A stretch of DNA of 64,000 nucleotides from a virus. The position numbers and the translations under genes were made by a program. Each line of letters opens with the position of its first letter. Position 1 is the stretch's first letter. The notes beneath the pieces are model-generated. The model had not been told where the DNA came from and ran no database searches. It was given only the letters and a program-made list of their open reading frames with translations. This document shows positions 19,047 through 45,731 of the stretch, piece after piece. The DNA lies in IMG/VR virus record IMGVR_UViG_3300029267_002600, positions 1 through 64,000 of that record. One strand, given 5' to 3'.

Positions 19047-19649
19047 ATGTCTTGGAAAGGCGAATCAAGAAGGCATTCGTTAGCCAGAAAGGGCGTTAAG
19101 ACTAATGTTGATAATCGAAGGCAATTTGATAATAGTAAATTAATAGGAGAAGGAGTTTATAATAAAAGAACATATTTGAATATTTTTACTAATCATATTA
19201 AGAATTTGAGGGTTGAAGATGCAATTATGTTAAGAGATATTATGGAAAGCAGATTAATAAACGCATTATTTGATCATCAATATAGAAAAACGAATAACTA
19301 TCCATCACGATCAGAACAAAAACGGATTCATCAAAAAATACAACTAATGGATATGGATGAATTGGTAGAAAATCTTCAAAAGTATCAAAATTATGGAACT
19401 TCTAATATCTACAAAGTAAAAGATCATGCGGAATATCTTATAGATATAGAAAAACAATCAACAGATATTGTGCATTTAGGAAATACAAAGAAATTGAGAT
19501 GGGGAGATACATTAGTTTATATTCAGGGATCGCCAGATAATACGGCATGGGTAATTCATAAAGGGCTGATTGGAAAACATAACTATGGGGCATATGGTGG
19601 AATAGATAAAGATCCAAATTTAGAAAGAATGTTAATTAGGGATGATTGA
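19047..19649 (+). CDS. WKGESRRHSLARKG-leader family protein 1/25
   Basis: MSWKGESRRHSLARKGVKTNVDNRRQFDNSKLIGEG (degenerate second module). Unique body. Confidence 0.85.
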   Translation: MSWKGESRRHSLARKGVKTNVDNRRQFDNSKLIGEGVYNKRTYLNIFTNHIKNLRVEDAIMLRDIMESRLINALFDHQYRKTNNYPSRSEQKRIHQKIQLMDMDELVENLQKYQNYGTSNIYKVKDHAEYLIDIEKQSTDIVHLGNTKKLRWGDTLVYIQGSPDNTAWVIHKGLIGKHNYGAYGGIDKDPNLERMLIRDD

Positions 19650-19650
19650 G

Positions 19651-20649
19651 ATGGCAGGAAAAGGAAGCGGTTGGAAGAACGAATCAAGAAGGCATTCGTT
19701 GGCAAGGAAGGGCGTAAAGACTAACATAGATCAGGGAAAACGATTTGATGTTTCTAATTTTGTCGCAAGGGGAGAAGGATTATCCAAAAAACTTGATGAT
19801 CTTGATGGTTTAGTATATGAGAGATTCATAATTATAGAAGAAGATCTGAAAGGGTTTATTCGATACAAGGATGAATGGGTTGAATATATACAAACAGAAT
19901 TATCCAAGATGGGCTATGATGAGGGCGATATTGATGATATGAATATTGAAGGATGGACAATCAGGTTACTTCTTGATTATATTGATGATAGATTAGATGT
20001 TCAAACAGGGCAGGAAGTAGATGATCTATCTGTTTGGATAGAAGATTATACTGGAGAGAAGATAGATACAGATGATATTACAGAATTAATATACAATAGC
20101 GTTATACTATTAGATCCAGAATTTAATAGCATTGTAAGGGTAAGAGATGGCTTGGAAGTAGATGTTGAAAGAGAATTGAGCAAGTTAGGATTTGATGAAG
20201 GTCAAATAGAAGATATATATATTGAAGATTGGGCAAGTCAAAGATTATTGGATGAGATTGAAGATGAGATCGGTTGGCAAAGATTATTTTCAAGAACGGA
20301 CACATTAGAAAGTTGGATTAGAGATCGCATAAGGATTAGGGATGAATCACAATTCAAGAGTTCGGGCAAGAGAAAGGACATAGATTTGCCCCAATCCAAC
20401 TTATATTTGAAAGGATTCGGTATGGATAGGAACGGCAATAAGGTAATCAAATTAACCTATCCGAATGGCAGGGGGTTCAGCATACAAACGAATATGAATC
20501 TTCCGATCATACACAGCATGAAACTTGGCAATAAGGATTTGCAGAATTTAACGAAATCAGAATTGAAAGCAATAGAAAGCGAAGTGATAGATTACATTGA
20601 GGGATATGGAAGTAAAGGTCAGCAAGATAGATTGAGGAAATTTAGGTGA
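19651..20649 (+). CDS. leader family protein 2/25, acidic body with internal duplication
   Basis: MAGKGSGWKNESRRHSLARKGVKTNIDQGKRFDVSNFVARG. Duplicated ELSKMGYDEGDIDDMNIEGW / ELSKLGFDEGQIEDIYIEDW. Confidence 0.85.
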   Translation: MAGKGSGWKNESRRHSLARKGVKTNIDQGKRFDVSNFVARGEGLSKKLDDLDGLVYERFIIIEEDLKGFIRYKDEWVEYIQTELSKMGYDEGDIDDMNIEGWTIRLLLDYIDDRLDVQTGQEVDDLSVWIEDYTGEKIDTDDITELIYNSVILLDPEFNSIVRVRDGLEVDVERELSKLGFDEGQIEDIYIEDWASQRLLDEIEDEIGWQRLFSRTDTLESWIRDRIRIRDESQFKSSGKRKDIDLPQSNLYLKGFGMDRNGNKVIKLTYPNGRGFSIQTNMNLPIIHSMKLGNKDLQNLTKSELKAIESEVIDYIEGYGSKGQQDRLRKFR

Positions 20650-20654
20650 TTTAA

Positions 20655-21143
20655 ATGGCATGGAAAGGCGAGAGCAGAAGGCACAGTTTGGCACGAAAGG
20701 GCGTAAAGACTAACATAGATGGTGGCAGAAGGTTTGATGTATCTAACTTTGTTGCAAGGGGGAAGTTAGATTTAAAGGAGTTTCCACCACAGAAGTATGT
20801 GGGAGATGGCAAACTTCCCAATATGTATTGGGTAAGTATCTCCAATCATTACTATTATTTTGATGAAGATTCAAATTCATTAGAAAGCATTACAGAAAGA
20901 GATCCAGATTTCAAGATTGAAGGTGGAACTGTTGCGGTATTTTCAACATTCAGGGAAGCACTTGAATTTGCCGATAAAAACAGTTGGCAGGGAGATGATA
21001 TTACCATAGAAGATAGATTAACAGGTCAAATTTGGGAACAATTTAAGTTTGTTCATATGATAGAAAAGGAAGAATACGAAACCCATGATGATACAAGATG
21101 GACAAAAGAACATATGAAAGAATTAGGAGTTGAGTTTGAATGA
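20655..21143 (+). CDS. leader family protein 3/25
   Basis: MAWKGESRRHSLARKGVKTNIDGGRRFDVSNFVARG. 95 nt are identical to the next copy. Confidence 0.85.
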   Translation: MAWKGESRRHSLARKGVKTNIDGGRRFDVSNFVARGKLDLKEFPPQKYVGDGKLPNMYWVSISNHYYYFDEDSNSLESITERDPDFKIEGGTVAVFSTFREALEFADKNSWQGDDITIEDRLTGQIWEQFKFVHMIEKEEYETHDDTRWTKEHMKELGVEFE

Positions 21144-21778
21144 GTTGGAAAGGCGAGAGCAGAAGGCACAGTTTGGCACGAAAGGGCGTAAAGACTAACA
21201 TAGATGGTGGCAGAAGGTTTGATGTATCTAACTTTGTTGCCAAAGGCGAAGATAGACCAAAAGTAAAATTCATGGGGGAAGGCAGAAGTATGCATGGCTA
21301 TATTGATAGATCGTGGGATGAATACCTATTTGAAGAAGAAGATGGCACGAATATAGAAGTAGTGGTATTTTCTGAACCCGATTGGGATATGTTAAGAGAA
21401 GTTGGAGAAGAAGAAGAAATCAAAGAACAAGATTGGGATGAATTTGTTCTTGATAGAGAAGAAGAATTTTATCAAGAAGGCAATGGAGAAGTTCATGTCA
21501 TATGGGCAGGGGCTTTGGATTTCACAGGAACAGAAAATGAATTTGCAGGTAGGTATCCAGAATTGAACGAGTATTTGAATCTTGGAGATTTATCTGGAAC
21601 ATGGGTTGTAGAAGATATGCCACATGAATTAAAATATCATGCAGAAAAAATGCCACAAGGTCATTATAAAGTAGTTGCAGAAGATAAATCAGGTAGATAT
21701 AGGATAGGATATACAAGCGATCCAGAAGCAATGATTAGAGAAACAGCGAAGGGTTATGACATTAGGAAGGTTAGGTGA
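21140..21778 (+). CDS. leader family protein 4/25, acidic body
   Basis: MSWKGESRRHSLARKGVKTNIDGGRRFDVSNFVAKG. ATGA overlap. Confidence 0.85.
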   Translation: MSWKGESRRHSLARKGVKTNIDGGRRFDVSNFVAKGEDRPKVKFMGEGRSMHGYIDRSWDEYLFEEEDGTNIEVVVFSEPDWDMLREVGEEEEIKEQDWDEFVLDREEEFYQEGNGEVHVIWAGALDFTGTENEFAGRYPELNEYLNLGDLSGTWVVEDMPHELKYHAEKMPQGHYKVVAEDKSGRYRIGYTSDPEAMIRETAKGYDIRKVR

Positions 21779-21783
21779 TTAAA

Positions 21784-22884
21784 ATGGCAGGAAAAGGAAG
21801 CGGTTGGCATGGAGAATCCCGAAGGCATTCTCTTGCAAGGAAAGGCGTAAAGACAACTCCACAAGGGGCAAGAATGAAAACAGTTCCGAAAGGAAGGATT
21901 ATAGATGCCTATGGCATTAAGTTTGATGCACATGGGCAACCAATGGTTGCCGAAGGCATATTGGGAGATCTTTGGGATAAGGCGAAATCCACGATAACAC
22001 AATCCAAATTAACACAGAAGATAAAGGATGTTGGTGGCACGATCAAGCAGAAAGTAACTGGCGTAGGTCAAAAAATAAAAGAAACTGGCGCAAAGATAAA
22101 AGAGAAGGTAACACCATCAAAAGATAAGGTAAAAACATCAACGGTGAAAGCGGATCATCCAATGAGAAGGGGGATGGAAATTCCCAAAGAAACACCGAAA
22201 GGTAAGCATCCAGCAAGGAGAGAGAACGAAGCATTAGCCAAGCAGATGGATAAGGTTGAAAGACAAAAGATAAGTTCAACAGAAGAAGAACTTGAACAAG
22301 CATCCCATTTCGGCAGGAAACCGAGCAAGGAAGAAGTAGATATAGATAACAAGGGCAGGGTTGGGGCATTAAAATCCAAGATTGCTTCGGAAGAAAAGAA
22401 AGTTCCGAGAGAGCAACTTACCGATATGCCAGAAGAAGTCTTTGAAAGCCCTGATGCCGATTCATTGATAGCCATTGCAGAAAATAGTGAAAAACTGATA
22501 GATTACAAGAATGAATTACAGTATGACATCAACATGATAAAGACAGAAGCGAAGCGATTGAAAAAGCGGTTTGAAACTGATGAACGGAAAGAGATTGCGG
22601 ATTTGAATGCTGACAGGGATAAAGCAAGGGCAAATTTCAAGAAGTTCAAAGATAATATAAAAATGAGTGGCATGGATGAAAGCAAGGCGAAGCACAAAAC
22701 CCAATCTAAATTGAATGAGTTAAAGCAAGAGTTTGAGCAAAGGAAGGTAGAGATTGGGGCATTAAAAATGCGAAATAAGGTTACGATAGATTTCTTAAAT
22801 GATCTTACTGACGATCTAACAAGGAATGTAGTAAAGATGGATAAGAAAGTCAAGCAAATGACAGCATCAGGGAAGGTGAAGTAA
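21784..22884 (+). CDS. leader family protein 5/25, Lys-rich coiled-coil body
   Basis: MAGKGSGWHGESRRHSLARKGVKTT. Ends ...MTASGKVK. Confidence 0.85.
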   Translation: MAGKGSGWHGESRRHSLARKGVKTTPQGARMKTVPKGRIIDAYGIKFDAHGQPMVAEGILGDLWDKAKSTITQSKLTQKIKDVGGTIKQKVTGVGQKIKETGAKIKEKVTPSKDKVKTSTVKADHPMRRGMEIPKETPKGKHPARRENEALAKQMDKVERQKISSTEEELEQASHFGRKPSKEEVDIDNKGRVGALKSKIASEEKKVPREQLTDMPEEVFESPDADSLIAIAENSEKLIDYKNELQYDINMIKTEAKRLKKRFETDERKEIADLNADRDKARANFKKFKDNIKMSGMDESKAKHKTQSKLNELKQEFEQRKVEIGALKMRNKVTIDFLNDLTDDLTRNVVKMDKKVKQMTASGKVK

Positions 22885-22885
22885 T

Positions 22886-23443
22886 ATGGCATGGAAAGGC
22901 GAGAGCAGACGGCACAGTTTGGCAAGGAAAGGCGTAAGGACAGCAAAGGGTTGCCCCCAGAAAAAGATGGTGGCAAGGGGCAATGAAGATGATGATCGTA
23001 GGGAATACATAAATAGGCAGGTTGCAGAATTTCAAAGGGATTTCTGCCCATATGGTTATCTTGATATAGAACAAGCATTGCTACATTTAGAAGCTTATGG
23101 TCATGGTATAGGATACTTGTTTGAAGCACTTGAAGAATTTGTTGAAAGCACAGGTACAGATAGAAATGATGTAGATATTACATGGATAGCATACGATAGC
23201 ATTCTTCAAGAAATTAGGCAGAAAATAGATTCTGAAATTGGCTTTGACATTATGAATGATGCTGATTATTACGCCTATGGAAATTACATGGCAACATCAT
23301 ACGATTGGAGTTCAGAAGATCAGGAAGCATTGAAATCAGCAATTAAGAATGCAGATATGGAATCAAAACACAACTTGCTTTCGGATGATGATGTAGTAAC
23401 TTGGCTTTCAGAAGTTGATATTGATATTAAGGAGTTGAGTTAA
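22886..23443 (+). CDS. leader family protein 6/25
   Basis: MAWKGESRRHSLARKGVRTAKG. Confidence 0.85.
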   Translation: MAWKGESRRHSLARKGVRTAKGCPQKKMVARGNEDDDRREYINRQVAEFQRDFCPYGYLDIEQALLHLEAYGHGIGYLFEALEEFVESTGTDRNDVDITWIAYDSILQEIRQKIDSEIGFDIMNDADYYAYGNYMATSYDWSSEDQEALKSAIKNADMESKHNLLSDDDVVTWLSEVDIDIKELS

Positions 23444-23868
23444 TGGCATGGAAAGGCGAGAGCAGAAGGCATAGTCTTGCCAGAAAGGGCGTAAAGACAG
23501 CAAAGCCAAGAATGAGGGCATCAGGGAAGAAAGAATTTGGAAATGCATTATCGCCAGAAGGTAAGGCATTATTAAAATCAGAAGGGTTTTCAGAAGATTA
23601 CATAATATTCATTTGGAAATCAGAAATGGATTCCCCACCAAATGTTCCACATTACATGACAATTGATTTTGTATTAGATTCTGAAATGAGAAAAGAATAC
23701 AATGAATTGAGAGAAGATGAAGATGGTATTACTGGAGAATGGTTAAGCCATAATCTTTGGACATTAATAGATAGGGGTTTAGTGGTTGATGTGTATGATG
23801 GTATTAATAGCCCCGAAGAATTGAAAGATAAATATGATGATATAGTATTAATTTATGGAAGGGGATAA
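23443..23868 (+). CDS. leader family protein 7/25
   Basis: MAWKGESRRHSLARKGVKTAKPRMRASGKK. TAATG overlap. Confidence 0.85.
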   Translation: MAWKGESRRHSLARKGVKTAKPRMRASGKKEFGNALSPEGKALLKSEGFSEDYIIFIWKSEMDSPPNVPHYMTIDFVLDSEMRKEYNELREDEDGITGEWLSHNLWTLIDRGLVVDVYDGINSPEELKDKYDDIVLIYGRG

Positions 23869-23869: not shown

Positions 23870-24622
23870 ATGAGTTGGCATAGAGAATCAAGAAGGCACA
23901 GTTTGGCAAGGAAGGGCATTAAAACGGCGAAAGGGCATTTCATGGATACAGATGAAGGCAAAAGAGAAATGAGAGAACCATTACACACAGATCCATTTGC
24001 CACAGGAGATTCACTTCGGGATTATCTTGATTCTCCAGCAGGAGAAGAATATCTTGAACTGCATTGGGAAAGTTTATATGAAGTTCCATTTAATTCATTT
24101 GAAGAAGGCATTCCATATTGGATAGATCATTATGAGAATCTATTGTTAGAAGAAGAAGTATATAGCCGAGAATATACTGATGAATTAATTGAACATGAAC
24201 TTGGCTATCATGATGGCTATGAGATTGGAGAATACAGAACCTTTGATGGCAAGGATTATTATTATGTTGGAAGCGTTTCGGGTGGAAGTGGAGAATTAGA
24301 GTTACAAGCAGATAACGGCGATCTTGTTTATGATGGCATTGGTGATAGTTTCTTCCGCATTTGGAAGCCATTCCCCGAAACATACATTTCATTGGAAGAA
24401 GATAGTTATGAATTAATTCATAACCATAAGACAGTTGCAGAAACCGAAAAAATATCTGAAATGAACAATCCAGATAAAGCATTACAAGATTTAAAAAATA
24501 GGGCATTAAAGAATGGTTGGAAACTTGAACCTATAATATGGGATGATGCAGAAAATAGATTTGAAAAACAGAAATCAATTCCAAGTTATAAGCCAGATAT
24601 ATATGAAGATATGTTTAATTAG
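23870..24622 (+). CDS. leader family protein 8/25, acidic body
   Basis: MSWHRESRRHSLARKGIKTAKG. Track ORF 23855..24622. Confidence 0.85.
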   Translation: MSWHRESRRHSLARKGIKTAKGHFMDTDEGKREMREPLHTDPFATGDSLRDYLDSPAGEEYLELHWESLYEVPFNSFEEGIPYWIDHYENLLLEEEVYSREYTDELIEHELGYHDGYEIGEYRTFDGKDYYYVGSVSGGSGELELQADNGDLVYDGIGDSFFRIWKPFPETYISLEEDSYELIHNHKTVAETEKISEMNNPDKALQDLKNRALKNGWKLEPIIWDDAENRFEKQKSIPSYKPDIYEDMFN

Positions 24623-24632: not shown

Positions 24633-25085
24633 ATGAGTTGGTGGAAACAAAGCGAAAGGCATAGTCTTGCCAGAAAGGGCATCAAGACAGCACAACAGGG
24701 TAAGCCCAAGATCACTAAAGGTATTGCGAATGAGCAAGTGATCAAGCACAAGTTATCCAACAACATTCACAAGAATATTACGGCGTTAGATCGTAAATTG
24801 CGTAAGGTAGCCAATCTTGAAAGCCAGAAAGACATTCAAAGGAATCTTGAAGATGCCATGAAGTTGTATGATTCATTAGGCGAAAAGATAAAAAATCACA
24901 AGCAACGGTATGGCAATATGCCAGATTGGATACAGCATGATTGGGTTCATAATGAAACATTCGACAAGAACGGCAAGATAAAGAAGCAGATGCAGAAGAT
25001 GAGGGAATTAGATCCAAAGAACTTGAAGAAAGAGCAGAACAAGATGTGGAATTTGATAGCGTTAAAGACGGAAAGGAGAAGGTGA
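24633..25085 (+). CDS. leader family protein 9/25 (most divergent leader)
   Basis: MSWWKQSERHSLARKGIKTAQQGKPK. Basic body. Confidence 0.8.
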   Translation: MSWWKQSERHSLARKGIKTAQQGKPKITKGIANEQVIKHKLSNNIHKNITALDRKLRKVANLESQKDIQRNLEDAMKLYDSLGEKIKNHKQRYGNMPDWIQHDWVHNETFDKNGKIKKQMQKMRELDPKNLKKEQNKMWNLIALKTERRR

Positions 25086-25089: not shown

Positions 25090-25299
25090 ATGCCATATAA
25101 GAAAGCAAGATATACACATAAAAGATATACAAATCCAAGAAATATCGTGAAAGGAACATTCAGAACAGTTCCATTATCGCATACGAGATCAAAGAGAAAG
25201 ATAAAAAATGCAAAAGCGATAGTAGGGAAATCCAAGAAAACAGGTAAGAACATCATTCAATCGGTATTAATACCGAAGAAAAATAGGAAGGTGAAGTAG
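25090..25299 (+). CDS. very basic small protein (not a family member)
   Basis: 69 aa, Lys/Arg-rich. It ends KKNRKVK, as does the mini-ORF at 37966-38073. Confidence 0.6.
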   Translation: MPYKKARYTHKRYTNPRNIVKGTFRTVPLSHTRSKRKIKNAKAIVGKSKKTGKNIIQSVLIPKKNRKVK

Positions 25300-25300
25300 G

Positions 25301-26113
25301 ATGGCATGGAAGAACGAATCTCGAAGGCATTCGTTGGCAAGGAAAGGCATAAGAACAAACATAGATGATGGCAGAAGGTTTGATGTATCCAACTTTGTTG
25401 CGAAGGGCAAGGGCAGATATACATATCATGGAAGGAAATTAGAATTAGGGGAATTACTTCAGGATGGATACAAATCAGGTAATGATTATTTTCTAATTAT
25501 CCAGTTACAAGATGGTTTCATAATCGGTGGATACATAGATCTTGATGAATACTGGAAAGATGCTGAATATATTAATGAAATCATAGTAGAACCCATGATA
25601 TTCACAGTAGAAGAATTTGATGAAAGACCAATGGAACAGTTATCAAGTGGTTGGGATTTAAGAACAAAGGAAGGAAAAGAGTATTTAAATAGGCACATAA
25701 AGAAGATAGAAGATTTACTGAAAGATTCAAGAGATTTCGAAACAAAAGCCAGATATGAGATAATCAATAAAACCGATTATGCGAAGGATGTTGCAATTGC
25801 TTACAATCAGAACTATGACAATGTGAAGCACACGAAATGGTTTATGAATGCGGTTGAAACAGAATTAGAATCTGATTTCAAATCCGAACAAAGATGGAAG
25901 GAACTGAAGCAAATGGAGAAGAAAAAGGCATCAGGAAAACATCTTTCAGTAAGAAAATTCAATGGAGAAGAATATTACTATACAGGAATAATGGATTCAG
26001 AATCAAAAGAAAGATTAGAAGCGACAGCAAAAGTAATGGGTAGAGGAAAACCATTCAAAATAGTAAGATTAAAGGATGGTTATCATCTTTATGCAAAAAA
26101 GAAGGTGATGTAG
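25301..26113 (+). CDS. leader family protein 10/25
   Basis: MAWKNESRRHSLARKGIRTNIDDGRRFDVSNFVAKG. Internal KKKASG. Confidence 0.85.
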   Translation: MAWKNESRRHSLARKGIRTNIDDGRRFDVSNFVAKGKGRYTYHGRKLELGELLQDGYKSGNDYFLIIQLQDGFIIGGYIDLDEYWKDAEYINEIIVEPMIFTVEEFDERPMEQLSSGWDLRTKEGKEYLNRHIKKIEDLLKDSRDFETKARYEIINKTDYAKDVAIAYNQNYDNVKHTKWFMNAVETELESDFKSEQRWKELKQMEKKKASGKHLSVRKFNGEEYYYTGIMDSESKERLEATAKVMGRGKPFKIVRLKDGYHLYAKKKVM

Positions 26114-26893
26114 ATGGGTTGGAAAGGCGAATCCCGAAGGCATTCGTTGGCAAGGAAAGGCATAAGAACAAACATAGATGATGGCAGAAGGTTTGATGTA
26201 AGTTCTTTTGTTGCAAAGGGCAAGAAGTTGCCAGAAGTGGATTATGGCACAGATGTATGGGAGTTCAGGGTGAATCCAGATGGTTCTATGCGTTTAAGAT
26301 TGGGCAATATGACAACAGCAGGATGGTATTGGACAGGGGATGAAACCGATCTTGGAACATTCTTGGTTAGAATTGTTAATTTCGGAGAGATGGATGAATT
26401 TAAGGAAGCAATGGCAGAAGCAGGAATATCCTTTGATATGTTGAAGCCATTTTTATTGAAGAACATTGATGAACCTGATGGAAATGGTATGTATTCTATT
26501 ACAGGGGATAATGTTAGATGGAAATTTGGAGAAGCGTATGATATTGATGTAGATGAAGAAGTCGAATATTTAACAAGTATGTATGAATTATCTGATGAAG
26601 ATAAGCAGGAGATAAAAGATGAGCATTATTGGAATCTTACAAGAGTTAGTATAGATGATTTTGAGAAAACAAAAGATTATGAGGAAATCAAAGGAGATCT
26701 GGAAGAAGCATTTAAATTATCAGATGATTTTGATGATTTTTCAAGCAATATAAAAGAATTAAAAGAAAATGTATTCTGGCAAATGATAGAATACGATCAA
26801 GAAGTAGAATTTGAAGATTTTGAGAGGGCATTCGATATTTGGAAGGGGAAAAAGAAGAAAGAAGGCAGAACCGTTAAGAAGATCAAGGGGTGA
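26114..26893 (+). CDS. leader family protein 11/25, acidic body
   Basis: MGWKGESRRHSLARKGIRTNIDDGRRFDVSSFVAKG. Confidence 0.85.
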   Translation: MGWKGESRRHSLARKGIRTNIDDGRRFDVSSFVAKGKKLPEVDYGTDVWEFRVNPDGSMRLRLGNMTTAGWYWTGDETDLGTFLVRIVNFGEMDEFKEAMAEAGISFDMLKPFLLKNIDEPDGNGMYSITGDNVRWKFGEAYDIDVDEEVEYLTSMYELSDEDKQEIKDEHYWNLTRVSIDDFEKTKDYEEIKGDLEEAFKLSDDFDDFSSNIKELKENVFWQMIEYDQEVEFEDFERAFDIWKGKKKKEGRTVKKIKG

Positions 26894-27973: not shown

Positions 27974-28444
27974 ATGGCAATAAAAGGAAAAGGTTGGAAG
28001 AACGAATCAAGAAGGCATAGTCTTGCGAGAAAGGGCATTAGAACAACGGATAATTCCATGTCGGGAGTAAGGGTTGATGAAAGTTCAGGATTATGGTTTG
28101 AATCGCAAGGAGTAGTATCCGAGATGGTTTCATTGGTTCAATTAATAGGATTTGATGATCTTATCAAAGAAAAGAAAGCAAGTGGCATTTCAAGAGATCA
28201 ATATGAAGCAGATGGAGAGAAGATTATAGTATTTCCATCAGAAGAAAGCAAGAAAACAGTTAAATGGCTATTGAACGAATACATCAATGGAGATCGCAAA
28301 AGAAGGAAGCAGGTAAAAAGGATGCTAAACATTGCCATCAAGGAAATAGATAGAAGATTGGGCAAGGAGAACATCATAGACATTAGAGTTGATCTTCACA
28401 AGAGCAGAAAGATGTTTAGAGAACTTGAACAGGAGTTGAGTTAA
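27974..28444 (+). CDS. leader family protein 13/25
   Basis: MAIKGKGWKNESRRHSLARKGIRTTDNS. Internal KKASG. Confidence 0.85.
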   Translation: MAIKGKGWKNESRRHSLARKGIRTTDNSMSGVRVDESSGLWFESQGVVSEMVSLVQLIGFDDLIKEKKASGISRDQYEADGEKIIVFPSEESKKTVKWLLNEYINGDRKRRKQVKRMLNIAIKEIDRRLGKENIIDIRVDLHKSRKMFRELEQELS

Positions 28445-34218: not shown

Positions 34219-34222
34219 TAAT

Positions 34223-37200: not shown

Positions 37201-37966
37201 TGAAGGCAATTATCAGATAACATTGAACGTAACTGATGATGATTGGAGATATGATGAAGATACCACATGGGTTAATATCACATTCAAGAAGCCAGTAGCC
37301 AGTTTTACAATAAACCCATCTGGAACATTGAAGGGTTGGAGATTAGTTGATGGCAATCCATCATCTGATGCAGATGGCACGATAGTTAATTACACATACG
37401 AATGGGAATACAATTCGATCACATATTATCGTTATGTTGCACAGTTCTCATTCAATTTCCTACTTGAAGGCACATATAATATCACATTGAATATCACAGA
37501 TGATGATGGATTACAGGATGAAACATACAGGACATTTAGCATAGTATTTGTAGATCCTGTTGCGGTCATATCTGACATCCCCTCTTTTATTATAACAGAT
37601 AATGTAACAAAAGTATTACAAGGTAATGAAATCGAATTTGATGGAAGCGAATCATATGATCTGGATGGCACGATTGCAAATTACACATGGAGTTTCACTT
37701 ACAACAATGTAAGTTATGAATACTATGGGGTTAGTTTCAATTTCACATTTAGCGAATCGGAAGAAAATATTACAATCACGTTGAATGTAACAGATGATGA
37801 TGGCTTATCTGACGAAACATCAATAATTATTACAGTAAGAAGCGCAAGTGAATATCTTGCCGATCTATTATTATTGCTTATCCCATTGTTCATAGTTCTA
37901 ATGTTAGTCATGATAGTAATCGCATATGTTAAGAAAACGACAAACCAACAGGAAGGTGATATTTAA
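34223..37966 (+). CDS. giant surface protein: lectin-like N-domain, parallel beta-helix repeats, seven PKD-like domains, C-terminal TM anchor
   Basis: Signal peptide. Repeated [IV]xNNxF/I.N.T beta-helix-like units (IIRNCTIYNSTN, ATIHNNTFWNNT, VTIYHNNFIDNS). Seven units of about 85 aa with ANAG..DGS.S.D.DG.I.NYTW.F...G.Y.ITLNVTDDDG. TM at the end. Confidence 0.75.
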   Translation: MKSKIVAMLIVIGIFGMNFATISMGITPIDNKIIAEPNQKSILSLNQILFYDDGTNETWEKNEEKDGGNITLNTTFDGRTCHRLSGNQSTSVAYAIQNETFTTEYDKIEIFWIQNTTMNNTDDKADIGFYSRNCFVGTGVQEHNSTHDAMWVQNGTGVPIIYEYIEKNRNQWVNYSLRAEWNGTGYTYDVYDNGTYVMSGASYNLSVFGGWISNITILQYSIGTGSSDSHIWFDEISFQSITHIHSPIRINSNTDFTFDNGVTSGTGVWNDPYIIDNWIINGTGYGSGIYIGNTTKHFIIRNCTIYNSTNYSSSVYYGESGICIYETYNATIHNNTFWNNTRQIYMENSVQDEYNITITKNKFSNLDESLINYGIYIENANNITIDNNNATDLYGFGMDLDTINNATIINNEMNNVGKGSPVMRFFVMENFTVSNNTILIGSMVNANGMLLTDIKNGQIDSNYIFDMLIAGMIIASGGGGVDNVTVFHNEIEDCQYGLRITTPSVNNVTIYHNNFIDNSVSHIESIYSSTSNKFHLGHQFGGNYYNDLITEDFYHGINQNLVGIDNLNDTGITVSANVNDAYPLIYPFETNNTPVAEAGADNYTQRVHYISAYNSSDAGGSALNYTWNFTYNSNPYTYYTMNFSFNFAIQGNYTVTLNVTDIDGNWDIDTMTVYAQPLTANAGADDSVYRGNSYQFNASGSLGAINNWTWNFTHNSTSEYLYGETPSFEFWELGIINVTLNVTDVYGSYDLDWMNLTVLNNPPTANAGVNQAGLKGIYTLDGSGSSDIDGTIQNYTWNFTYNGNPQTLYLTYPMFNFQILGNYFITLNVTDNDGGYDHDTTWVNISNANPVANAGTDIIGKRLITFDGSLSSDVDGSIVNYTWTFSDDGTPVTLYGVSPSYDFNISQAPITVTLNVTDDEGGTDEDTVLVTLVFQLPIADAGEDQGTNKGTFILDGSGSSDPDGSIINWTWTFTYDGSPETLWGDQPTFDFLLEGNYQITLNVTDDDWRYDEDTTWVNITFKKPVASFTINPSGTLKGWRLVDGNPSSDADGTIVNYTYEWEYNSITYYRYVAQFSFNFLLEGTYNITLNITDDDGLQDETYRTFSIVFVDPVAVISDIPSFIITDNVTKVLQGNEIEFDGSESYDLDGTIANYTWSFTYNNVSYEYYGVSFNFTFSESEENITITLNVTDDDGLSDETSIIITVRSASEYLADLLLLLIPLFIVLMLVMIVIAYVKKTTNQQEGDI
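36002..37840 (+). repeat. seven tandem PKD-like domain repeats (coding)
   Basis: Units start PVAEAGADN, PLTANAGADD, PPTANAGVNQ, PVANAGTDI, PIADAGEDQ, PVASFTINP and PVAVISDIP. Each ends ..LNVTD.DG..D. Confidence 0.7.
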
Positions 37967-38073: not shown

Positions 38074-38074
38074 G

Positions 38075-39144: not shown

Positions 39145-39752
39145 GTTGGAAAGGTGAAAGCCGAAGGCATAGTCTTGCCAGAAAGGGAGTTAAGACAGCG
39201 AAAGGCATCACAAATTCCAAGTATAATGTAATCAACAGCAAGGGTAAGCCCAAGTTGAAGATCGGATTGCCCGATTACAGCAGGGATCAGATAAAGCATC
39301 TATGCCAATTAGCGAATGGCAAAGAATGGATTGCCGAGTTAAATATGGTTAATGGAGATATTCTTATAGATGATATTCAGGTATCGAAGGAAGTTGATCA
39401 TTCTTATTTGCGTTGGAATAAGGGGGATGAAAGCCATAATGTTGGCTACATTCACTTTCATCCCAAGACTTTAATCCCTGAATTTTCCGCACAGGATTTC
39501 GTATTGGCAATAGAGATTCATGATATTCGTGGAAATAAGGGGAATTATCCATATACGATAATGGGCTTGGTATATCCAGATGATAACGATAAGTTACATT
39601 TGAGAATGTATGCGATCAATCCCAAGCAAGATTACAAGCCAATGCTTGAAGGCAGGGAAGTAACAGAAAGGGATTTGAAGGAAGAAATTGATGTCATGAT
39701 CAGCAATCAGGAGTTAATCAAATTGAACAACATAAGTGGAGATATATCATGA
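39132..39752 (+). CDS. leader family protein 18/25 with possible JAB/MPN-like metalloprotease body
   Basis: GTG start, (M)VAIGWKGESRRHSLARKGVKTAKG. HFHPKTLIPEFSAQD approximates the JAMM H-x-H-x7-S-x2-D motif but has one extra residue. A Glu lies upstream (EWIAELNMVNG). Confidence 0.8.
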   Translation: MVAIGWKGESRRHSLARKGVKTAKGITNSKYNVINSKGKPKLKIGLPDYSRDQIKHLCQLANGKEWIAELNMVNGDILIDDIQVSKEVDHSYLRWNKGDESHNVGYIHFHPKTLIPEFSAQDFVLAIEIHDIRGNKGNYPYTIMGLVYPDDNDKLHLRMYAINPKQDYKPMLEGREVTERDLKEEIDVMISNQELIKLNNISGDIS

Positions 39753-40987
39753 AGTCGGGCAAAGGAGAAGTTAGGAACGGCAAAAGAATGAAAGCGATAA
39801 CCATTATGGTATCGTTAGCCATGCTATTTTCTGGATTAATGACAGTAAATGCAACAGCAGGAAATGTTTGGTGGAATAGCAGTTGGAATTACAGTAAAGA
39901 ATTAACATTCGATAATTCCGATCAATCCGAGAATCTAACGAACTTTCCAGTAATGGTTAGATTGACCACATCAAACTTTGATTATTCAAAGTGCAATGCA
40001 GATGGTTCAGATATTAGATTTGTTGATGGCTTAACCGAATTAAGTTACGAATTTGACTTATGGAACAATACTGGAGAAAGCATCTTATGGGTTAATGTGC
40101 CACAAATAGATGGTGAAAGTTACACAGATTCGATAGATCTTTATTACGGCAATGAGAATGCCGTTTCAGGTGAAGATAAGGAAGGCACATGGCATGAAGA
40201 TTATACGATAGTCTATCACATGGGAGAAGCCAATCTCACTCATAACGATAGCACAGCAAATGAATTAGATGGTACTCCATCAGGATTTAATGGAAGTGAA
40301 ACAACAGATGGTATTGTTGGATTAGCAGATGAATTTGATGGTGTAGATGATTGGATTAATATAACTGGAACAGATCTGTTTCCACCAATGCAAAATTGCA
40401 CACAATCCTTTTGGTTTAAATGGAAAGGAACATTCACTCAATGGATTATTGTAATGGGATGTGGAGATTCAGGTTGGGGAAACACAAGCATAGCCATTAA
40501 TCAGGATGATGGTTGGGCGTTATGTGTTCGAAAAAATATTACTGGCACATCTACTTACAACGGACATTATGGAGATTCATTATATGCAGAAGGAGAATGG
40601 ACAAATATCGTGTGCCGACACGATTATCTGAACAATAATTTTTCAATGTTTGTTAATGGAGAACATATAAAAAGTGTCGAATCATATGGTTTAGGTAGTA
40701 ATGTAGGGCATACTTTGAAACTTGGGGCTTTTGGGAATCCAACTGACGATTATTTTAACGGAACATTGGATGAAGTTAGAAGATCCAATAATGTTCAAAG
40801 TGATGATTGGATAAAGGCCGAATATCTATCTATAACAGACAATTTCATAACATTTGGTAATGAGAATCAAGCCCCATTCAGTTGGTTGCCATCACTTGTA
40901 CCACTTGGATTTGCAGTTATTTTAATGATTGTGATCGTAAATTACTTCAATGAATCAATGGGCATGAAAAAGAAAGGTGGTAGATAG
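39749..40987 (+). CDS. DUF2341 + LamG (concanavalin-A-like lectin) surface protein with C-terminal TM anchor
   Basis: WWNSSWNYSKELTFDN...NLTNFPVMVRL...GSDIRFVD...ILWVNVP...IDLYYGNENA matches the DUF2341 pattern. FDGVDDWINI...FWFKW...MFVNGEHI...FNGTLDEVRRSNNVQSDDWIKAEY matches Laminin_G_3. Confidence 0.75.
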   Translation: MKSGKGEVRNGKRMKAITIMVSLAMLFSGLMTVNATAGNVWWNSSWNYSKELTFDNSDQSENLTNFPVMVRLTTSNFDYSKCNADGSDIRFVDGLTELSYEFDLWNNTGESILWVNVPQIDGESYTDSIDLYYGNENAVSGEDKEGTWHEDYTIVYHMGEANLTHNDSTANELDGTPSGFNGSETTDGIVGLADEFDGVDDWINITGTDLFPPMQNCTQSFWFKWKGTFTQWIIVMGCGDSGWGNTSIAINQDDGWALCVRKNITGTSTYNGHYGDSLYAEGEWTNIVCRHDYLNNNFSMFVNGEHIKSVESYGLGSNVGHTLKLGAFGNPTDDYFNGTLDEVRRSNNVQSDDWIKAEYLSITDNFITFGNENQAPFSWLPSLVPLGFAVILMIVIVNYFNESMGMKKKGGR

Positions 40988-42974
40988 GTTGAACAGTTTC
41001 CGAAAATACGGTTTAGGAATCATAATATTATCTATGATTATGCCGTTATTTTCTGGAATTACATTAGGTAAAGATCTCCCACAACCACAAACACAAGCGG
41101 TATTATATTCTGAAGATTTTGATGGTTACAATGATGGTGATATTCCAACCACAGCAGAATGGCATCAGGGAACTGGAAACTATGATCCACAGGTATTTGA
41201 AGTTGATGATGATCAGCAATGGCAATCTGCCCCTAATTCGTTATGGATGAAAAGTTGGAGTTCATGGTTTGCATTTTGTAGATACACAAACAGCACATCA
41301 TTTTCAGATTATACAATCACATTTGATATATATATTAATGCCAGTAATGGATTATATTATTTTTCTACAACAGAAGGAACAAATGAGTGGCATCAGGAAC
41401 AAAGTTTGCATCAACAGGTATTTAGATTACAATTTATGGCAGATGGCACAATTAAATACAATAGTGGTGGATGGATAGATACAGGAATGACATATACTGT
41501 TGGTTGGTATAATTTTACAATTCGACATAATGATACAGATGATAAGGTAGATATTTGGATAAATAACAATCATATAATGAATTGGGCTAATTATAGATGG
41601 GCTTGTGATGGAATAAGAGGAATGCATTTTGGCATATCAGCAAGTGGATCTGTAATTAGAGATATATTCATTGATAATTTTAAAATCGAATCTGAAGAAT
41701 TACCGCAACCGCAATTTAGCAATGTAATAATAACTCCCGATTCAGCAGAATATGATGTAGATTACGTTAATATCACTTGCAATATTACAAATGGAGTGGG
41801 GATAGATAGTGCATATGTAAATATAACAGGATTGGGTAATTACTCTATGGTACAAGGATCGGGAGATATTTGGTATCTGAACCAAACATATTCAAAACTT
41901 GGAACAAATTCATTTTTTATTACTGCCAATGACACATCAAACAATTGGAATAATACAGGTAATTTTTCATTTATAATATATGATACTTTAGCCCCACAGA
42001 TTACCCTTATTAGCGTAAGCCCTGTTCCTCAAGAGTATGATGAAGCAGTTAATGTTACTGCCACAATTCAGAATCATGTTGCAGTAAGTAGTGCATATGT
42101 AAATATAACAGGATTGGGTAATTATTCTATGGTACAAGGATCGGGATATTTATGGCATTTCAATCAATCATTATCTGCCCCTGTTGATATATACACATTC
42201 CATATCGCAAGTAATGACACATCAAACAATTGGAATAATTCAGGGGTTTATTTCTTTGAATTAAAAGATACTACTCCACCCGAAATAATAAATATAGTAT
42301 CTACTCCAAACGAGATCGAATCGGGTTGCAATATGAATATTACAGCAGAAGTAACAGATTTTAGTGGTGTAAATGCAACCATTATTCATTTGCAAATAAT
42401 AACTCCAATCGGAACTACAAACCATACTATGACAAAAGGATCAGGGGATGAATATTATTACAATAATACTTTCGTTTTAAATTCAGAAGTTCAATATTTA
42501 TTATGGAGTAATGATTCGTGGGATAATGTGAATCAATCAGGTTGGAGTTCTTTTTGGGTGAATGATACCACACCACCTGATCTGGATGTATTATATACAC
42601 CATCAACTGAAACTACAAGAACGGATTCGATAAATATCACATTCAACATTACGGATCTTGGAGATATTGATGAAGTTTGGATTAATTTATTCTATCCAGA
42701 TGGTTCAAGCCAAAACATCAGCATGAAGGAAGGGGTAGATGGTTGGTTCTTCAATCAAACCTTTGATGATGTTGGAGAATATCATTATTTTATTGTAGCC
42801 AAAGATAGTAGTAATAATTGGGGCAGATCATCAGAATATTCGTTTGAAATAGAAATGACACAGAACGATTTCATTTGGTCATTAATATTATTTCTGGCAA
42901 TTATGTTTGGGGCAATTGTAGTTACAAAAGGCGTATTGTATGGTGATAAATTTGGGGTGGAAAGGCGAAAGTAG
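40977..42974 (+). CDS. surface protein: jelly-roll/lectin-like N-domain plus four Ig-like repeats and C-terminal TM anchor
   Basis: GTG 40977 or TTG 40989 start. Signal peptide. LYSEDFDGYNDGDIP...IFIDNFKIE. Four units of about 95 aa containing NIT...MV/TKGSGD.WY.N.T...A.D.S.NWNN. Confidence 0.7.
   Translation: MVDRLNSFRKYGLGIIILSMIMPLFSGITLGKDLPQPQTQAVLYSEDFDGYNDGDIPTTAEWHQGTGNYDPQVFEVDDDQQWQSAPNSLWMKSWSSWFAFCRYTNSTSFSDYTITFDIYINASNGLYYFSTTEGTNEWHQEQSLHQQVFRLQFMADGTIKYNSGGWIDTGMTYTVGWYNFTIRHNDTDDKVDIWINNNHIMNWANYRWACDGIRGMHFGISASGSVIRDIFIDNFKIESEELPQPQFSNVIITPDSAEYDVDYVNITCNITNGVGIDSAYVNITGLGNYSMVQGSGDIWYLNQTYSKLGTNSFFITANDTSNNWNNTGNFSFIIYDTLAPQITLISVSPVPQEYDEAVNVTATIQNHVAVSSAYVNITGLGNYSMVQGSGYLWHFNQSLSAPVDIYTFHIASNDTSNNWNNSGVYFFELKDTTPPEIINIVSTPNEIESGCNMNITAEVTDFSGVNATIIHLQIITPIGTTNHTMTKGSGDEYYYNNTFVLNSEVQYLLWSNDSWDNVNQSGWSSFWVNDTTPPDLDVLYTPSTETTRTDSINITFNITDLGDIDEVWINLFYPDGSSQNISMKEGVDGWFFNQTFDDVGEYHYFIVAKDSSNNWGRSSEYSFEIEMTQNDFIWSLILFLAIMFGAIVVTKGVLYGDKFGVERRK
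41703..42855 (+). repeat. four tandem Ig-like domain repeats (coding), two with near-identical DNA
   Basis: 41808-41864 and 42090-42146 are identical at 56 of 57 nt (agtgcatatgtaaatataacaggattgggtaatta[c/t]tctatggtacaaggatcggga). Confidence 0.75.
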
Positions 42975-43365: not shown

Positions 43366-43366
43366 T

Positions 43367-43972: not shown

Positions 43973-43993
43973 TGTTCAGAATGAACTTCTCCA

Positions 43994-44046: not shown

Positions 44047-44065
44047 CAATCAGGGGGGCTAACTG

Positions 44066-44185
44066 ATGGAACGGTGTGATAGATGCAACAGGGCAGTTCC
44101 CGATTTTCTTCTTAATAGAGTTGGCAAAATCATGTTATGTGATAATTGTAAGGAGAAGAAGGAGAGATCACAGGGGGCAGTATAG
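44066..44185 (+). CDS. 39-aa zinc-ribbon mini-protein (below the track threshold)
   Basis: MERCDRCNRAVPDFLLNRVGKIMLCDNCKEKKERSQGAV. The stop abuts the TTG start of the next family gene. Confidence 0.45.
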   Translation: MERCDRCNRAVPDFLLNRVGKIMLCDNCKEKKERSQGAV

Positions 44186-44698
44186 TTGGCATGGAAGGGC
44201 GAATCCAGAAGGCATAGTCTTGCAAGGAAGGGGATCAAGACGGCGAAGCCAGTAATAGCAAGTGGTGTTAGCATTGATAAATTAAAACTCCATAAGAGAT
44301 TACCAAAAGATAAATTAGATAAAAAAATGCAAAATTTATTTTATTATGATGTTGAAGGATTAGAATGTTTTGTAAAGCAATATTTGGAAGAAATGTTCTT
44401 TGATGAAGATAAAAGCGTGATAGATATTGTTGATGTTGTATTATGGGGTAGTTATACTAAAAACGAAGAAAAAGTAGGTTCTGATCTTGATTTCTTATTG
44501 ACATATAATGGAACAGCAAGAGAAGATGGCTTATTCAATTGGATTAATCATGATAATCCAGAAGGGCAACTTATGATAATAGATAGATATGGGAATGAAG
44601 TTAAGATAGATATTACTCCTGTTAATCTACATAGGGAATCAACTACTGAAGAAGAATTAATTAATTATTCAAAAATGGAACAAAGGAGAATTAGATAA
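44186..44698 (+). CDS. leader family protein 21/25 with minimal nucleotidyltransferase (Pol-beta superfamily) body
   Basis: TTG start, (M)AWKGESRRHSLARKGIKTAKPVIASG. VVLWGSYTKNEEKVGSDLDFLL is the G-S-x(9-10)-D-x-D NTase signature. Confidence 0.8.
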   Translation: MAWKGESRRHSLARKGIKTAKPVIASGVSIDKLKLHKRLPKDKLDKKMQNLFYYDVEGLECFVKQYLEEMFFDEDKSVIDIVDVVLWGSYTKNEEKVGSDLDFLLTYNGTAREDGLFNWINHDNPEGQLMIIDRYGNEVKIDITPVNLHRESTTEEELINYSKMEQRRIR

Positions 44699-45150
44699 TG
44701 GCATGGAAGGGCGAATCAAGAAGGCATAGTCTTGCAAGGAAGGGCATCAAGACGGCGAACAAGCCATTAAAATCAGCAGGAAAGAAGTTCAAAAGCCAAG
44801 CAGATCCAGAAGTGTATAAAAAATGGGATAAATTAGTCAATATGAGTTATTCCGAATTGAAGCGATTCATTGATACTGAAGAAGGAAGGAAGGCAGGATT
44901 GAGCAAAGAACAAGCCCGAAAGCAAGGCATCAAATACGGAAGGGAAAGTGCCAAATGGATACTGAAGATGAAGAAAACCCCTGTTAATGAATGGACAGAA
45001 ACCATGTGGGAGTGGGCAAGAAGGCAGAATAGTTTCATAAGCAGAATGCGTGGAAATAAGGGAAAATTGTATGATGAAGAAGGCAATAAAACGAGAAAGC
45101 ACACTTCATTATTGATTTGGGGGCATGATCCCACAAAGGAGAATAAGTAA
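44698..45150 (+). CDS. leader family protein 22/25 with DUF3140-like body
   Basis: MAWKGESRRHSLARKGIKTANKP. VNMSYSELKRFIDTEEG...HTSLLIWGHDP recalls DUF3140 (VNMS..EL..WL ... W.YSLMNWGHDP). This rests on memory only. Confidence 0.8.
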   Translation: MAWKGESRRHSLARKGIKTANKPLKSAGKKFKSQADPEVYKKWDKLVNMSYSELKRFIDTEEGRKAGLSKEQARKQGIKYGRESAKWILKMKKTPVNEWTETMWEWARRQNSFISRMRGNKGKLYDEEGNKTRKHTSLLIWGHDPTKENK

Positions 45151-45731
45151 TGGCTTGGAAGGGCGAATCACGAAGGCATAGTCTTGCAAGGAAGGGGATT
45201 AAGACAGTAATTAGTGATAAACGAAAGGTTGATGTATCTACATTTGTTGCGAAAGGCAAATTACATCCACAATTATTTACATTTAAGAACAACCCATATA
45301 TGATTGATCAGGGCTATAAAATGAAAGAAATACGGTGGAGTTATCCTGAAGATAAATCAGAAAATTATTTTTTTCATGCAACATTTTTACCAAAATTAGA
45401 ATCAATCAAAAAGGAAGGTTTAAAAGTAGATACAGAAAAATTATGGGATATTTCAGGATCAGGAAAATCATATTTCACTCATATTCCAATAACAGCAATA
45501 GGTTGGGTGATGGGATATATGTATGGGGAAGATGAATATGATGATGAAGAAGATATTTCAATAGTGTTATTAAGGATTCCACCGAAATATAAGATGGAAT
45601 ACGATCACAAAGGAACTTTGAATAGCACACCAAGAAGTAACAATTATTTCACAGAAGAAAATGTTGATCCAAACGATATTGAGATAAAAACAAAGGGTGG
45701 TTGGATTCCTTTAAAGGAGTTTGATATATGA
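45150..45731 (+). CDS. leader family protein 23/25, tentative ADP-ribosyltransferase-like body
   Basis: MAWKGESRRHSLARKGIKTVISDKRKVDVSTFVAKG. FFHAT..I.KEGL, GSGKSYFT and YFTEENV are arranged like an H-Y-E ART fold. This is very tentative. Confidence 0.8.
   Translation: MAWKGESRRHSLARKGIKTVISDKRKVDVSTFVAKGKLHPQLFTFKNNPYMIDQGYKMKEIRWSYPEDKSENYFFHATFLPKLESIKKEGLKVDTEKLWDISGSGKSYFTHIPITAIGWVMGYMYGEDEYDDEEDISIVLLRIPPKYKMEYDHKGTLNSTPRSNNYFTEENVDPNDIEIKTKGGWIPLKEFDI

Follow-up and report, generated by a model that had tools for sequence, protein, structure and literature searches.

A short N-terminal tag with an optional, erodible extension and a candidate cleavage junction on 25 divergent proteins of an uncharacterised mobile element or virus

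Conserved one- or two-part N-terminal motifs mark polymorphic effectors, as in the two-part RxLR-dEER of oomycete effectors and the MIX motif of type VI effectors, and herpesvirus assemblin and phage prohead proteases cut at sites of the form (V/L/I)-x-A|S. In bacteriophage T4, the capsid targeting sequence (CTS) is a short N-terminal propeptide of divergent, fast-evolving internal proteins, which suffices for their loading and is cut at a short consensus by gp21, and the CTS locus is hypervariable between relatives (PMC9026906). In poxviruses, several structural precursors of the core are cut at Ala-Gly-X by the I7L proteinase during particle maturation, usually within the N-terminal 60 residues (PMC1959187). 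Here we analysed a 64,000-nucleotide stretch of viral metagenome DNA (positions 1 to 64,000 of IMG/VR record IMGVR_UViG_3300029267_002600, hereafter the window), in which 25 genes encode proteins with a common N-terminal peptide, tag A, in front of divergent payloads. In a subset of them tag A is followed by a second block, module B, which is closed by a junction motif, hydrophobic-x-[AS]-[KRS]-G. Our comparisons point to module B as an optional and erodible extension of tag A, and to the junction motif as a candidate cleavage point that recurs inside the payloads. The system is unannotated and apparently a new form of a known principle, in which a targeting propeptide common to several proteins is combined with a site for its cleavage.

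Like the T4 CTS, tag A is a short N-terminal sequence, here a putative propeptide, common to divergent proteins of one genome, but no sequence similarity to the CTS was seen by inspection, the tagged genes number 25 and not a handful, an optional second module is present, the cleavage-like motif also lies inside payloads, and no HK97 capsid, scaffold or protease gene is detectable in a context made of type I membrane proteins. That tag A binds the scaffolding core of an HK97-fold prohead and is removed by a prohead protease is highly improbable in our view; the same logic of a short shared, protease-removed N-terminal propeptide on divergent proteins (PMC9026906) and the phage-like replication genes in the window favour it, but no gene for a major capsid protein, portal, terminase or prohead protease can be recognised in the full 74,206-bp circle to which the window belongs, confirmed matches to the leader motif are missing from IMG/VR viral contigs and GenBank phages, and the surrounding genes encode type I membrane proteins. 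The same morphogenesis genes were missing from the large membrane proteins (Pfam), from the remaining 10.2 kb of the circle (precomputed Pfam) and from 83 neighbours at 11 related loci (PHROGs), very divergent versions being possible. The likeness to poxvirus maturation lies in a small-residue motif ending in Gly at a usually N-terminal position. Unlike there, the motif is hydrophobic-x-[AS]-[KRS]-G (A-x-G) and not A-G-X, the proposed docking tag lies upstream of the site, and cleavage itself is a proposal; no clan CE protease (Peptidase_C57, C5, C48) was matched in the window. On the features tested, the locus belongs to neither the T4 CTS nor the poxvirus system, since HK97 genes and a clan CE protease are missing and the motif is different. 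As to the assemblin and prohead protease sites, L-K-A-S-G, M-T-A-S-G and I-M-A-S-G inside the payloads have the form hydrophobic-x-A with Ser as the next residue, which is a resemblance only; unlike those sites, the leader-end motifs have Arg or Lys after Ala, and no S21/S78-like protease was found. The arrangement of a conserved one- or two-part N-terminal motif on diverse, recombining C-terminal domains in gene clusters is shared with RxLR-dEER and MIX effectors, but the sequence and the organisms are others, no signal peptide precedes the tag, and no type VI or other secretion system was detected.

A six-frame scan of the window returned exactly 25 RHSLA sites, all on the plus strand and all at the N-termini of open reading frames (ORFs), and the 25 genes have the tag A consensus W-[KH]-[GN]-E-S-R-R-H-S-L-A-R-K-G-[VI]-[KR]-T (Table 1). 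They lie in three blocks (19.0–30.2, 38.1–39.8 and 42.9–47.1 kb) of a window that is coded nearly all on the plus strand by tightly packed genes. Module B comprises 17 residues, N[IV]D.[GS][RK]RFDVS.FVA[KR]G, and follows ...KG[VI][KR]T directly, in the same register and without gaps, in the seven genes for which a sequence-only reading of the window had described it (19651, 20655, 21140, 25301, 26114, 26898 and 28444, genes being named by their start positions). The degenerate copies in genes 19047 (NVDNRRQFDNSKLIGEG) and 45150 (VISDKRKVDVSTFVAKG) were likewise recovered, as were the linkers of the other 16 genes (AKG in four, AKP in two, ASGR in two, AQQ in two, and six singletons). Regarding the range of 19104 to 45260 given for module B, its start is exact, being the first base of B in gene 19047, whereas B of gene 45150 stops at 45257, one codon before the given end. 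The N-terminal region is modular, with A alone or A plus B, as had been read. Alternative upstream starts exist for several tagged genes (19642/19651, 21775/21784, 23855/23870, 27917/27974, 29265/29280, 38590/38602 and 43358/43367), non-ATG starts occur at 39132 (GTG) and 44186 (TTG), and two tagged genes carry a basic pre-extension of the MAGKGSG type, which is common in other lineages.

The position of module B is fixed. On contig L001, which carries copies of the window genes, an A+B profile scored 87–92 bits for A+B members and 31–45 bits for A-only members, and a B-only profile matched only directly after tag A, with no B lacking A found by this profile in the window and five related loci. 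Nine A+B N-termini were combined into a profile, which gave 407 matches at E ≤ 1e-3, including 89 at E ≤ 1e-10, among 1.84 billion representative proteins. Among the 150 matches listed, more than 100 have full A+B at the extreme N-terminus, sometimes preceded by a short basic Gly-rich extension such as MKKQGSG and followed by unrelated payloads of 85–365 amino acids (aa). The profile scores, the confinement of the B-only profile and the recurrence of the same block in these metagenome proteins together indicate that module B is not a product of chance. Variants of B among the matches include NLPDGRRFDVSKFVA[NRK]G, VIDDxRRLPVNRFVARG and IDxxKRLSVRNFVARG, and divergent tags include GWFGDHRRHVLAGKGVST. 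Further metagenome loci, 48 in number, were retrieved, and arrays on other contigs mix A-only and A+B genes (at least 10 members on L006, 17 on L007 and 11 on L008).

No model of Pfam-A, PHROGs v4 or NCBIfam 20 covers leader residues 1–38 in any member scanned. A tblastn search of GenBank phages with the leader gave noise only, IMG/VR viral contigs yielded 0 exact matches of the leader motif and 0 confirmed relatives, and the motif strings are absent from the searchable literature. Among GTDB genomes just two contigs have the leader, both from one metagenome-assembled genome labelled WOR-3 and probably mis-binned, so that no reliable host is given. A match of the A+B profile to RyR3 in a PDB profile search (residues 1643–1682, ungapped, 17.5 bits, E = 0.022) is probably due to chance. 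Likenesses of G-E-S-R-R-H to the ParB box G-E-R-R-x-R-A and of H-S-L-A-R-K-G to ribosomal eS30 had no profile match and were dropped. A phosphorylation site of the protein kinase A type (R-R-x-S-L) was ruled out by the replacement of Ser with Gly, Val or Ala in many homologues.

Synonymous codons vary at nearly every leader position, including Ser TCN/AGY, Leu TTG/CTT and Arg AGA/CGA, indicating that the leader is conserved at the peptide level and not as DNA or RNA; these substitutions, with their switches within the six-fold Ser, Leu and Arg sets, exclude a recombination signal or RNA element as the cause of the conservation.

The sequence-only reading had taken module B to define two subfamilies, which our data do not support. 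When the payloads of 204 family members were clustered after removal of 22 residues following KT, 12 of the 31 multi-member clusters contained both A-only and A+B proteins. Full B is present in orthologues, on other elements, of the window genes 21784, 22886, 43367, 44186 and 38602: the extension of gene 21784, TPQGARMKTVPKG, is set against full B in its orthologues P0026 and L007_9111, and that of gene 22886, AKGCPQKKMVARG, against full B in L007_8057. In P0073 (…VNRYVARGKPHEFA) and P0150 (…NSKYYAKGKRHEFA) B is eroded in place. The tag-A leader DNA (51 nt) did not cluster by B status (mean differences of 12.6 for B-B, 12.3 for A-A and 13.1 for B-A pairs; permutation p = 0.09) and clustered by physical neighbourhood.

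A second, separate subfamily (A versus A+B) that arose by duplication and took on distinct roles would agree with the partial clustering of B members at 19–21.8 and 25.3–29.3 kb, with the long identical leader DNA of neighbouring pairs (95 nt in 20655 and 21140, positions 20661–20755 and 21146–21240; 66 nt in 25301 and 26114, positions 25322–25387 and 26135–26200), and with A+B payloads that are slightly more acidic (p = 0.02) and longer (p = 0.03) in a sample biased by the A+B query. However, the payloads of the window B members are unrelated to one another, as are all 25 window payloads in BLAST comparisons, and to the mixed payload families, the eroded intermediates and the unsegregated tag-A DNA is added the case of B member 25301 and A-only gene 38075, which lie 13 kb apart and have 61 identical nt including the upstream region (25272–25332 and 38046–38106). 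Since such identical leader runs join genes with unrelated payloads, they are attributed to recent gene conversion or recombination through the leader. We regard a separate subfamily as very unlikely, and largely refuted already.

Judged by these alignments, module B is an optional, erodible extension of tag A, about 14 residues (N[IV]D.G[RK]RFDVS.FV) placed between tag A and the junction motif. It depends on A, it is gained, lost or eroded within payload families, and in other lineages it is replaced by other post-A extensions (AVNNPKEKAMMK in 8 of 12 genes of L046, ANKLP in L032, AVD[HN]KP in L041 and ARG in L020). The homogenised extensions of each lineage suggest lineage-specific tuning of the tag. 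The question on module B moves away from what separates two subfamilies, and points to affinity tuning or spacing, not to a separate function.

At tag position 13, all 25 copies in the window have Ala (GCA, GCC, GCG), and all 25 copies carried by L007 and L008 have Ser (TCA, TCG, TCC). Since all paralogues switched between Ala13 and Ser in concert while their synonymous sites differ, we argue for one common, element-specific partner; gene conversion followed by drift is an alternative explanation. The isolated A+B peptide was modelled by AlphaFold2 with a 66-sequence alignment at a predicted local distance difference test score (pLDDT) of 66, with a short helix at residues 8–14 (RRHSLAR) as the sole feature, and the most conserved non-basic tag positions (W3, E6, H10, L12/A13, G16) are spaced by 3–4 residues, as on one helix face (assigned by inspection). 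The exact conservation of these non-basic residues suits protein–protein recognition better than binding of the basic tag (pI ~11.7, isoelectric point) to nucleic acid of the element, by which acidic proteins would ride with the genome and B would add Arg contacts. Such binding is doubtful, the element-wide Ala13-to-Ser switch and the lack of any match to a known DNA-binding family also counting against it, in spite of the richness of the tag in Arg, Lys and His, the presence in P0097, P0098, P0119 and P0146 of additional N-terminal extensions rich in Arg and Gly, or of A motifs that are duplicated and joined by poly-Lys, and a 69-aa protein of pI 11.9 encoded within the array.

The tag also resembles a twin-arginine translocation (Tat) signal in its S-R-R-x-x-L core near the N-terminus and its small-x-small end. 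A host secretion signal, either of the Tat type (S-R-R-x-F-L-K) or of the class III, prepilin-like type cut after [KR]-G, could account for S-R-R-H-S-L in the tag, for an extension end of small-x-Gly, as in the –3/–1 rule, with [KR]-G, and for a Cys-poor composition that hints at an extracytoplasmic fate, but we give it hardly any credence. As a Tat signal peptide the leader was rejected, since it has no hydrophobic h-region, the sequence between the twin Arg and the junction (ARKGVKT(NIDGGRRFDVSNFV)) being charged and polar. The twin Arg gives a mixed picture: it is present in the window as S-R-R-H-S-L, and divergent homologues drop one or both Arg and retain His (SREH, SRLH, RYGH, the last in the form NRYGH). 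As an archaeal prepilin-like class III signal it was rejected because FVA[KR]G is followed by polar residues (K, N, E, Q etc.) and then by soluble domains, with no hydrophobic stretch after [KR]-G. A ribosomally synthesised and post-translationally modified peptide (RiPP) precursor was excluded by the size of the tagged proteins, 135–359 aa counted from the tag Trp, one modelled member having four predicted folded modules; no RiPP enzyme was found beside the arrays, and the radical S-adenosylmethionine (SAM) matches were to non-tagged window ORFs, not mapped next to the arrays.

The junction motif closes module B: of 133 non-redundant copies, 132 have [AST]-x-G as their last residues (FVARG, YVARG or FVAKG for the most part), and the terminal Gly of B (G36) is the sole invariant column of the 66-sequence alignment. 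In 34 of 58 A-only proteins Ala stands directly after KT, and in 37 of the 58 an [AGS]-x-G begins within 12 residues, the rate in control windows taken further inside these proteins being about 12%; short forms of the junction in window A-only linkers are AKG, ASG, AHG, ADG, MVARG, MRASG and VIASG. Within the payloads, too, the motif is in 5- to 40-fold excess ([LIVMFY].A[KRS]G, 24 versus 4.6 ± 2.0 in composition-preserving shuffles; KASG, 17 versus 0.4 expected, with a maximum of 3 in 200 shuffles), and not in the non-tagged window proteins (4 versus 2.3). Its codons vary.

That FVA[KR]G marks a domain boundary, as had been proposed from the sequence, was borne out: PHROG and BLAST alignments of payloads begin about 0–5 residues past the Gly, and the predicted fold of the 26898 protein begins at about residue 39. 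In the AlphaFold2 model of this protein (356 aa), residues 1–37 have pLDDT below 50 and are disorder-like, A+B extending up to junction Gly38; the other low-confidence segments, 174–181 and 229–235, coincide with LKASG (176–180) and YTSSG (229–233), and a third LKASG (286–290) lies in a loop from strand to helix. By these positions the four junction motifs delimit four predicted modules, the first of which resembles stand-alone, untagged, uncharacterised phage proteins of about 130 aa (Foldseek E = 3e-5, target-normalised template-modelling score 0.77) and also matches phrog_1915 from residue 41 on. Cassettes are exchanged at such sites in other proteins. The cassette C-terminal to FKSSG of gene 19651 is joined to other, unrelated sequences on its upstream side in P0038 and L007_6808, and a C-terminal cassette that the 26898 protein, P0041 and P0157 have in common is preceded by LKASG. 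By alignment position, IMASG of gene 29280 corresponds to the leader-end FVARG of P0044 and P0052: the stretch that aligns with the payload start of P0044 lies 3 residues downstream of it, and the BLAST alignment to P0052 begins at it. MTASG of the 21784 protein is kept in orthologues, 3–5 residues from the C-terminus. Taken across alignments and predicted models, the junction motif is a constant element marking the boundaries of putative modules and shuffled cassettes, and a candidate cleavage point; its recurrence at inter-domain linkers of payloads and its short form in most A-only linkers lend indirect support to the idea of a processing site.

It is also possible, though on balance unlikely, that the junction is a flexible hinge and recombination joint only, with the tag staying on as a permanent docking or membrane- or partner-binding arm and B as a spacer. 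The location of the motifs in predicted linkers, the shuffling of payload cassettes at them and the working of A-B as an internal repeat in P0001 and P0068 are in line with this. On the other hand, a generic linker needs no fixed hydrophobic-x-A-[SKR]-G with the invariant G36, the 40-fold excess of KASG would be unexpected, and a motif 3–5 residues from the C-terminus, as in gene 21784 and its orthologues, is hard to square with a hinge. The two repeat proteins, P0001 (654 aa; L004, 10001–11965) and P0068 (572 aa), are from another element (a 104-kb contig, GCA_905333815.1). They have at least three internal tandem A-B units, GW.GE.RRH..A.KG…KR.D.SK[YF]V, alternating with a second pair that is A-like and B-like, Y..Q.RRH.HSARGG … YKRLRFDKFV, and may thus bind the same partner multivalently. 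The other large proteins near P0001 on L004 gave only weak matches of coiled-coil type in PHROGs.

The payloads are mosaic, mostly acidic and built of shuffled cassettes. Recognisable domains are rare among 146 family members: DUF6876, DUF7447, GNAT, DUF5661, DUF5419, HTH_63 and Prok-JAB occur in one member each, and phrog_1915 in four. Cys is scarce, with 6 in the 5,450 residues of the 25 tagged proteins (0.11%) versus 1.56% in the remaining proteins of the window, which include many CxxC zinc-finger-like ones; family-wide the Cys content is 0.19%, and 121 of 150 payloads have none.

The reading that we prefer, while granting it somewhat less than even confidence, is that of a docking tag, optionally extended and followed by a junction that can be cleaved, by which variable cargo would be packaged or exported. 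Through tag A each protein would dock onto a partner that the element itself encodes, for which the membrane-protein block immediately upstream of the first array is the best candidate, and module B would strengthen, lengthen or space the docking peptide. Once docked, the proteins would be taken up into a particle or vesicle or be exported, and a protease would then cut the junction motifs, taking off the tag and separating the payload cassettes in a polyprotein-like manner. Several points weigh against this proposal. The internal tandem A-B units of P0001 and P0068 argue that the unit can work without being N-terminal or removed, and the junction could be nothing but a flexible linker. No capsid, portal, terminase or maturation or prohead protease was recognisable in the 63 non-tagged window proteins scanned with Pfam and PHROGs, no protease, receptor or secretion ATPase was identified, and for neither the tag nor the conserved membrane block do Pfam, PHROGs and NCBIfam offer an annotation. 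The element may be a virus or a plasmid, the AlphaFold2 models are of modest confidence (pLDDT 66–68), and the family sample covers 150 of the 407 profile matches, drawn with an A+B query that biases the proportions of A-only to A+B proteins.

If the docking and cleavage proposal holds, 25 genes, about a quarter of the ~92 window ORFs called, would be addressed by one peptide code, simple enough for experiment and reuse. A tag of 17–37 residues could then load or export arbitrary proteins and a five-residue junction could release them, and there would be a first functional handle on at least 407 unannotated representative protein clusters and on the membrane proteins conserved beside the arrays. 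More speculatively, these loci may represent an undescribed group of mobile elements or viruses with a new delivery grammar, consisting of tag A, lineage-specific extensions and a reusable cleavage junction, which use the upstream membrane proteins to load or export shuffling polyprotein-like effectors. Such a route would amount to packaging or secretion machinery of a new kind, for which both the signal and the specificity of the protease would be new.

The conserved membrane-protein block directly upstream of the first array is a candidate for the partner machinery. Its four products are 807, 1030, 117 and 192 aa long; the first has a signal peptide and C-terminal transmembrane (TM) segments, the third has four hydrophobic stretches that look TM-like, and the last is a type I protein with abundant N-x-S/T sequons. 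This four-gene block is syntenic with tag arrays in four lineages. Among the ten non-tagged proteins in 11965–18937, 30245–37966, 39749–42974 and 47186–48594, nine have a signal-like N-terminal and a C-terminal TM segment, the exception being the 1030-aa protein, with two C-terminal TM segments only; a short basic tail after the TM segment and many N-x-S/T sequons were read by eye in these proteins. The surface-protein architecture is archaeal-style; the host itself may or may not be archaeal. Arrays adjoin type I membrane proteins in all lineages examined, including a second lineage group, whose type I proteins hhalign did not link to the 807-aa or 1030-aa families. Relatives of the 1030-aa family lie on contigs of 97–166 kb; no annotated relative was found, and a profile search returned no solved one.

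The window makes up 86% of a circular (or terminally redundant) 74,206-bp element, with a GC content of ~36% and a GC skew that climbs steadily. Closure of the circle is given by locus L010, which continues past the window end, and by L012, which runs into window position 283; the length of the ENA contig, 74,347 bp, is accounted for by 74,206 bp and a k-mer overlap of 141 bp, and a second assembly has a contig of 74,350 bp. The called genes share one strand, with a single exception of 155 aa on the minus strand, which falls in the 10.2 kb beyond the window. Other genes of the element encode a phage-common topoisomerase-like protein, methyltransferases, a PD-(D/E)XK nuclease, radical SAM proteins, a phosphoadenosine phosphosulfate reductase, and a 441-aa protein (4053–5378) with a Walker A motif (GGVGTGKS) and a weak Zot-like match.

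Table 1. Positions of tagged genes, leader modules, junction motifs and membrane-protein genes in the window
Feature	Position	Strand	Details
Conserved membrane-protein block	11965..18937	+	Directly upstream of first array
Tagged gene	19047..19649	+	Tag A 19053-19103; degenerate B 19104-19154 (NVDNRRQFDNSKLIGEG)
Tagged gene with MAGKGSG pre-extension	19651..20649	+	Tag A 19672-19722; B 19723-19773, ending in FVARG
Internal junction FKSSG	20353-20367	+	Gene 19651, between two payload cassettes
Tagged gene	20655..21143	+	Tag A 20661-20711; B 20712-20762
Tagged gene	21140..21778	+	Tag A 21146-21196; B 21197-21247
Tagged gene	21784..22884	+	Tag A 21805-21855, then eroded B (TPQGARMKTVPKG); full B in orthologues elsewhere
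Junction MTASG	22858-22872	+	Gene 21784, 3 residues before C-terminus
Tagged gene	22886..23443	+	Tag A 22892-22942; shortened extension AKGCPQKKMVARG, junction MVARG 22967-22981
Tagged gene	23443..23868	+	Tag A 23449-23499; short extension AKPRMRASG, junction 23512-23526
Tagged gene, A only	23870..24622	+	Tag A 23876-23926; linker AKG
Tagged gene, A only	24633..25085	+	Tag A 24639-24689, divergent (WWKQSERHSLARKGIKT); linker AQQG
Tagged gene	25301..26113	+	Tag A 25307-25357; B 25358-25408
Tagged gene	26114..26893	+	Tag A 26120-26170; B 26171-26221
Tagged gene	26898..27968	+	Tag A 26910-26960; B 26961-27011
Internal junctions LKASG, YTSSG, LKASG	27423-27437, 27582-27596, 27753-27767	+	Gene 26898; delimit four predicted modules
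Tagged gene, A only	27974..28444	+	Tag A 27995-28045; linker TDNS
Tagged gene	28444..29280	+	Tag A 28450-28500; B 28501-28551
Tagged gene, A only	29280..30245	+	Tag A 29286-29336; ASGR; internal junction IMASG 29766-29780
Type I membrane proteins between arrays	30245..37966	+	454, 870 and 1247 aa; 1247-aa protein with seven matched PKD_4 stretches and beta-helix
Tagged gene, A only, second block	38075-38599	+	Tag A 38081-38131
Tagged gene, A only, second block	38602-39144	+	Tag A 38608-38658
Tagged gene, A only, second block	39132-39752	+	Tag A 39147-39197
Type I membrane proteins between arrays	39749..42974	+	412 aa (DUF2341 and LamG) and 665 aa
Tagged gene, A only, third block	42940-43365	+	Tag A 42958-43008
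Tagged gene, A only, third block	43367-43972	+	Tag A 43373-43423
Tagged gene, A only, third block	44186-44698	+	Tag A 44192-44242
Short junction VIASG	44252-44266	+	Third block
Tagged gene, A only, third block	44698-45150	+	Tag A 44704-44754
Tagged gene	45150..45731	+	Tag A 45156-45206; degenerate B 45207-45257 (VISDKRKVDVSTFVAKG)
Tagged gene, A only	45728-46309	+	Tag A 45734-45784
Tagged gene, A only	46309-47145	+	Tag A 46315-46365

Within the first array, an untagged 69-aa ORF at 25090–25299 encodes the Lys/Arg-rich protein of pI 11.9 mentioned above, which is also present in the near-identical contig L001 and may be a nucleic-acid-binding or core protein. The sole obvious protease candidate is a SprT-like protein (1608–2312) with the only HExxH among plus-strand ORFs of at least 60 codons, and nothing ties it to the junction motif. 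Neither the tRNA scan nor the tandem-repeat scan turned up anything relevant to the tag. A tandem repeat with a 12-nt unit (TGTATTACAAAT, 6.8 copies) is located at 60241–60321, in the largest intergenic gap of the plus-strand ORF list (60155–60625), and may be an iteron or origin region.

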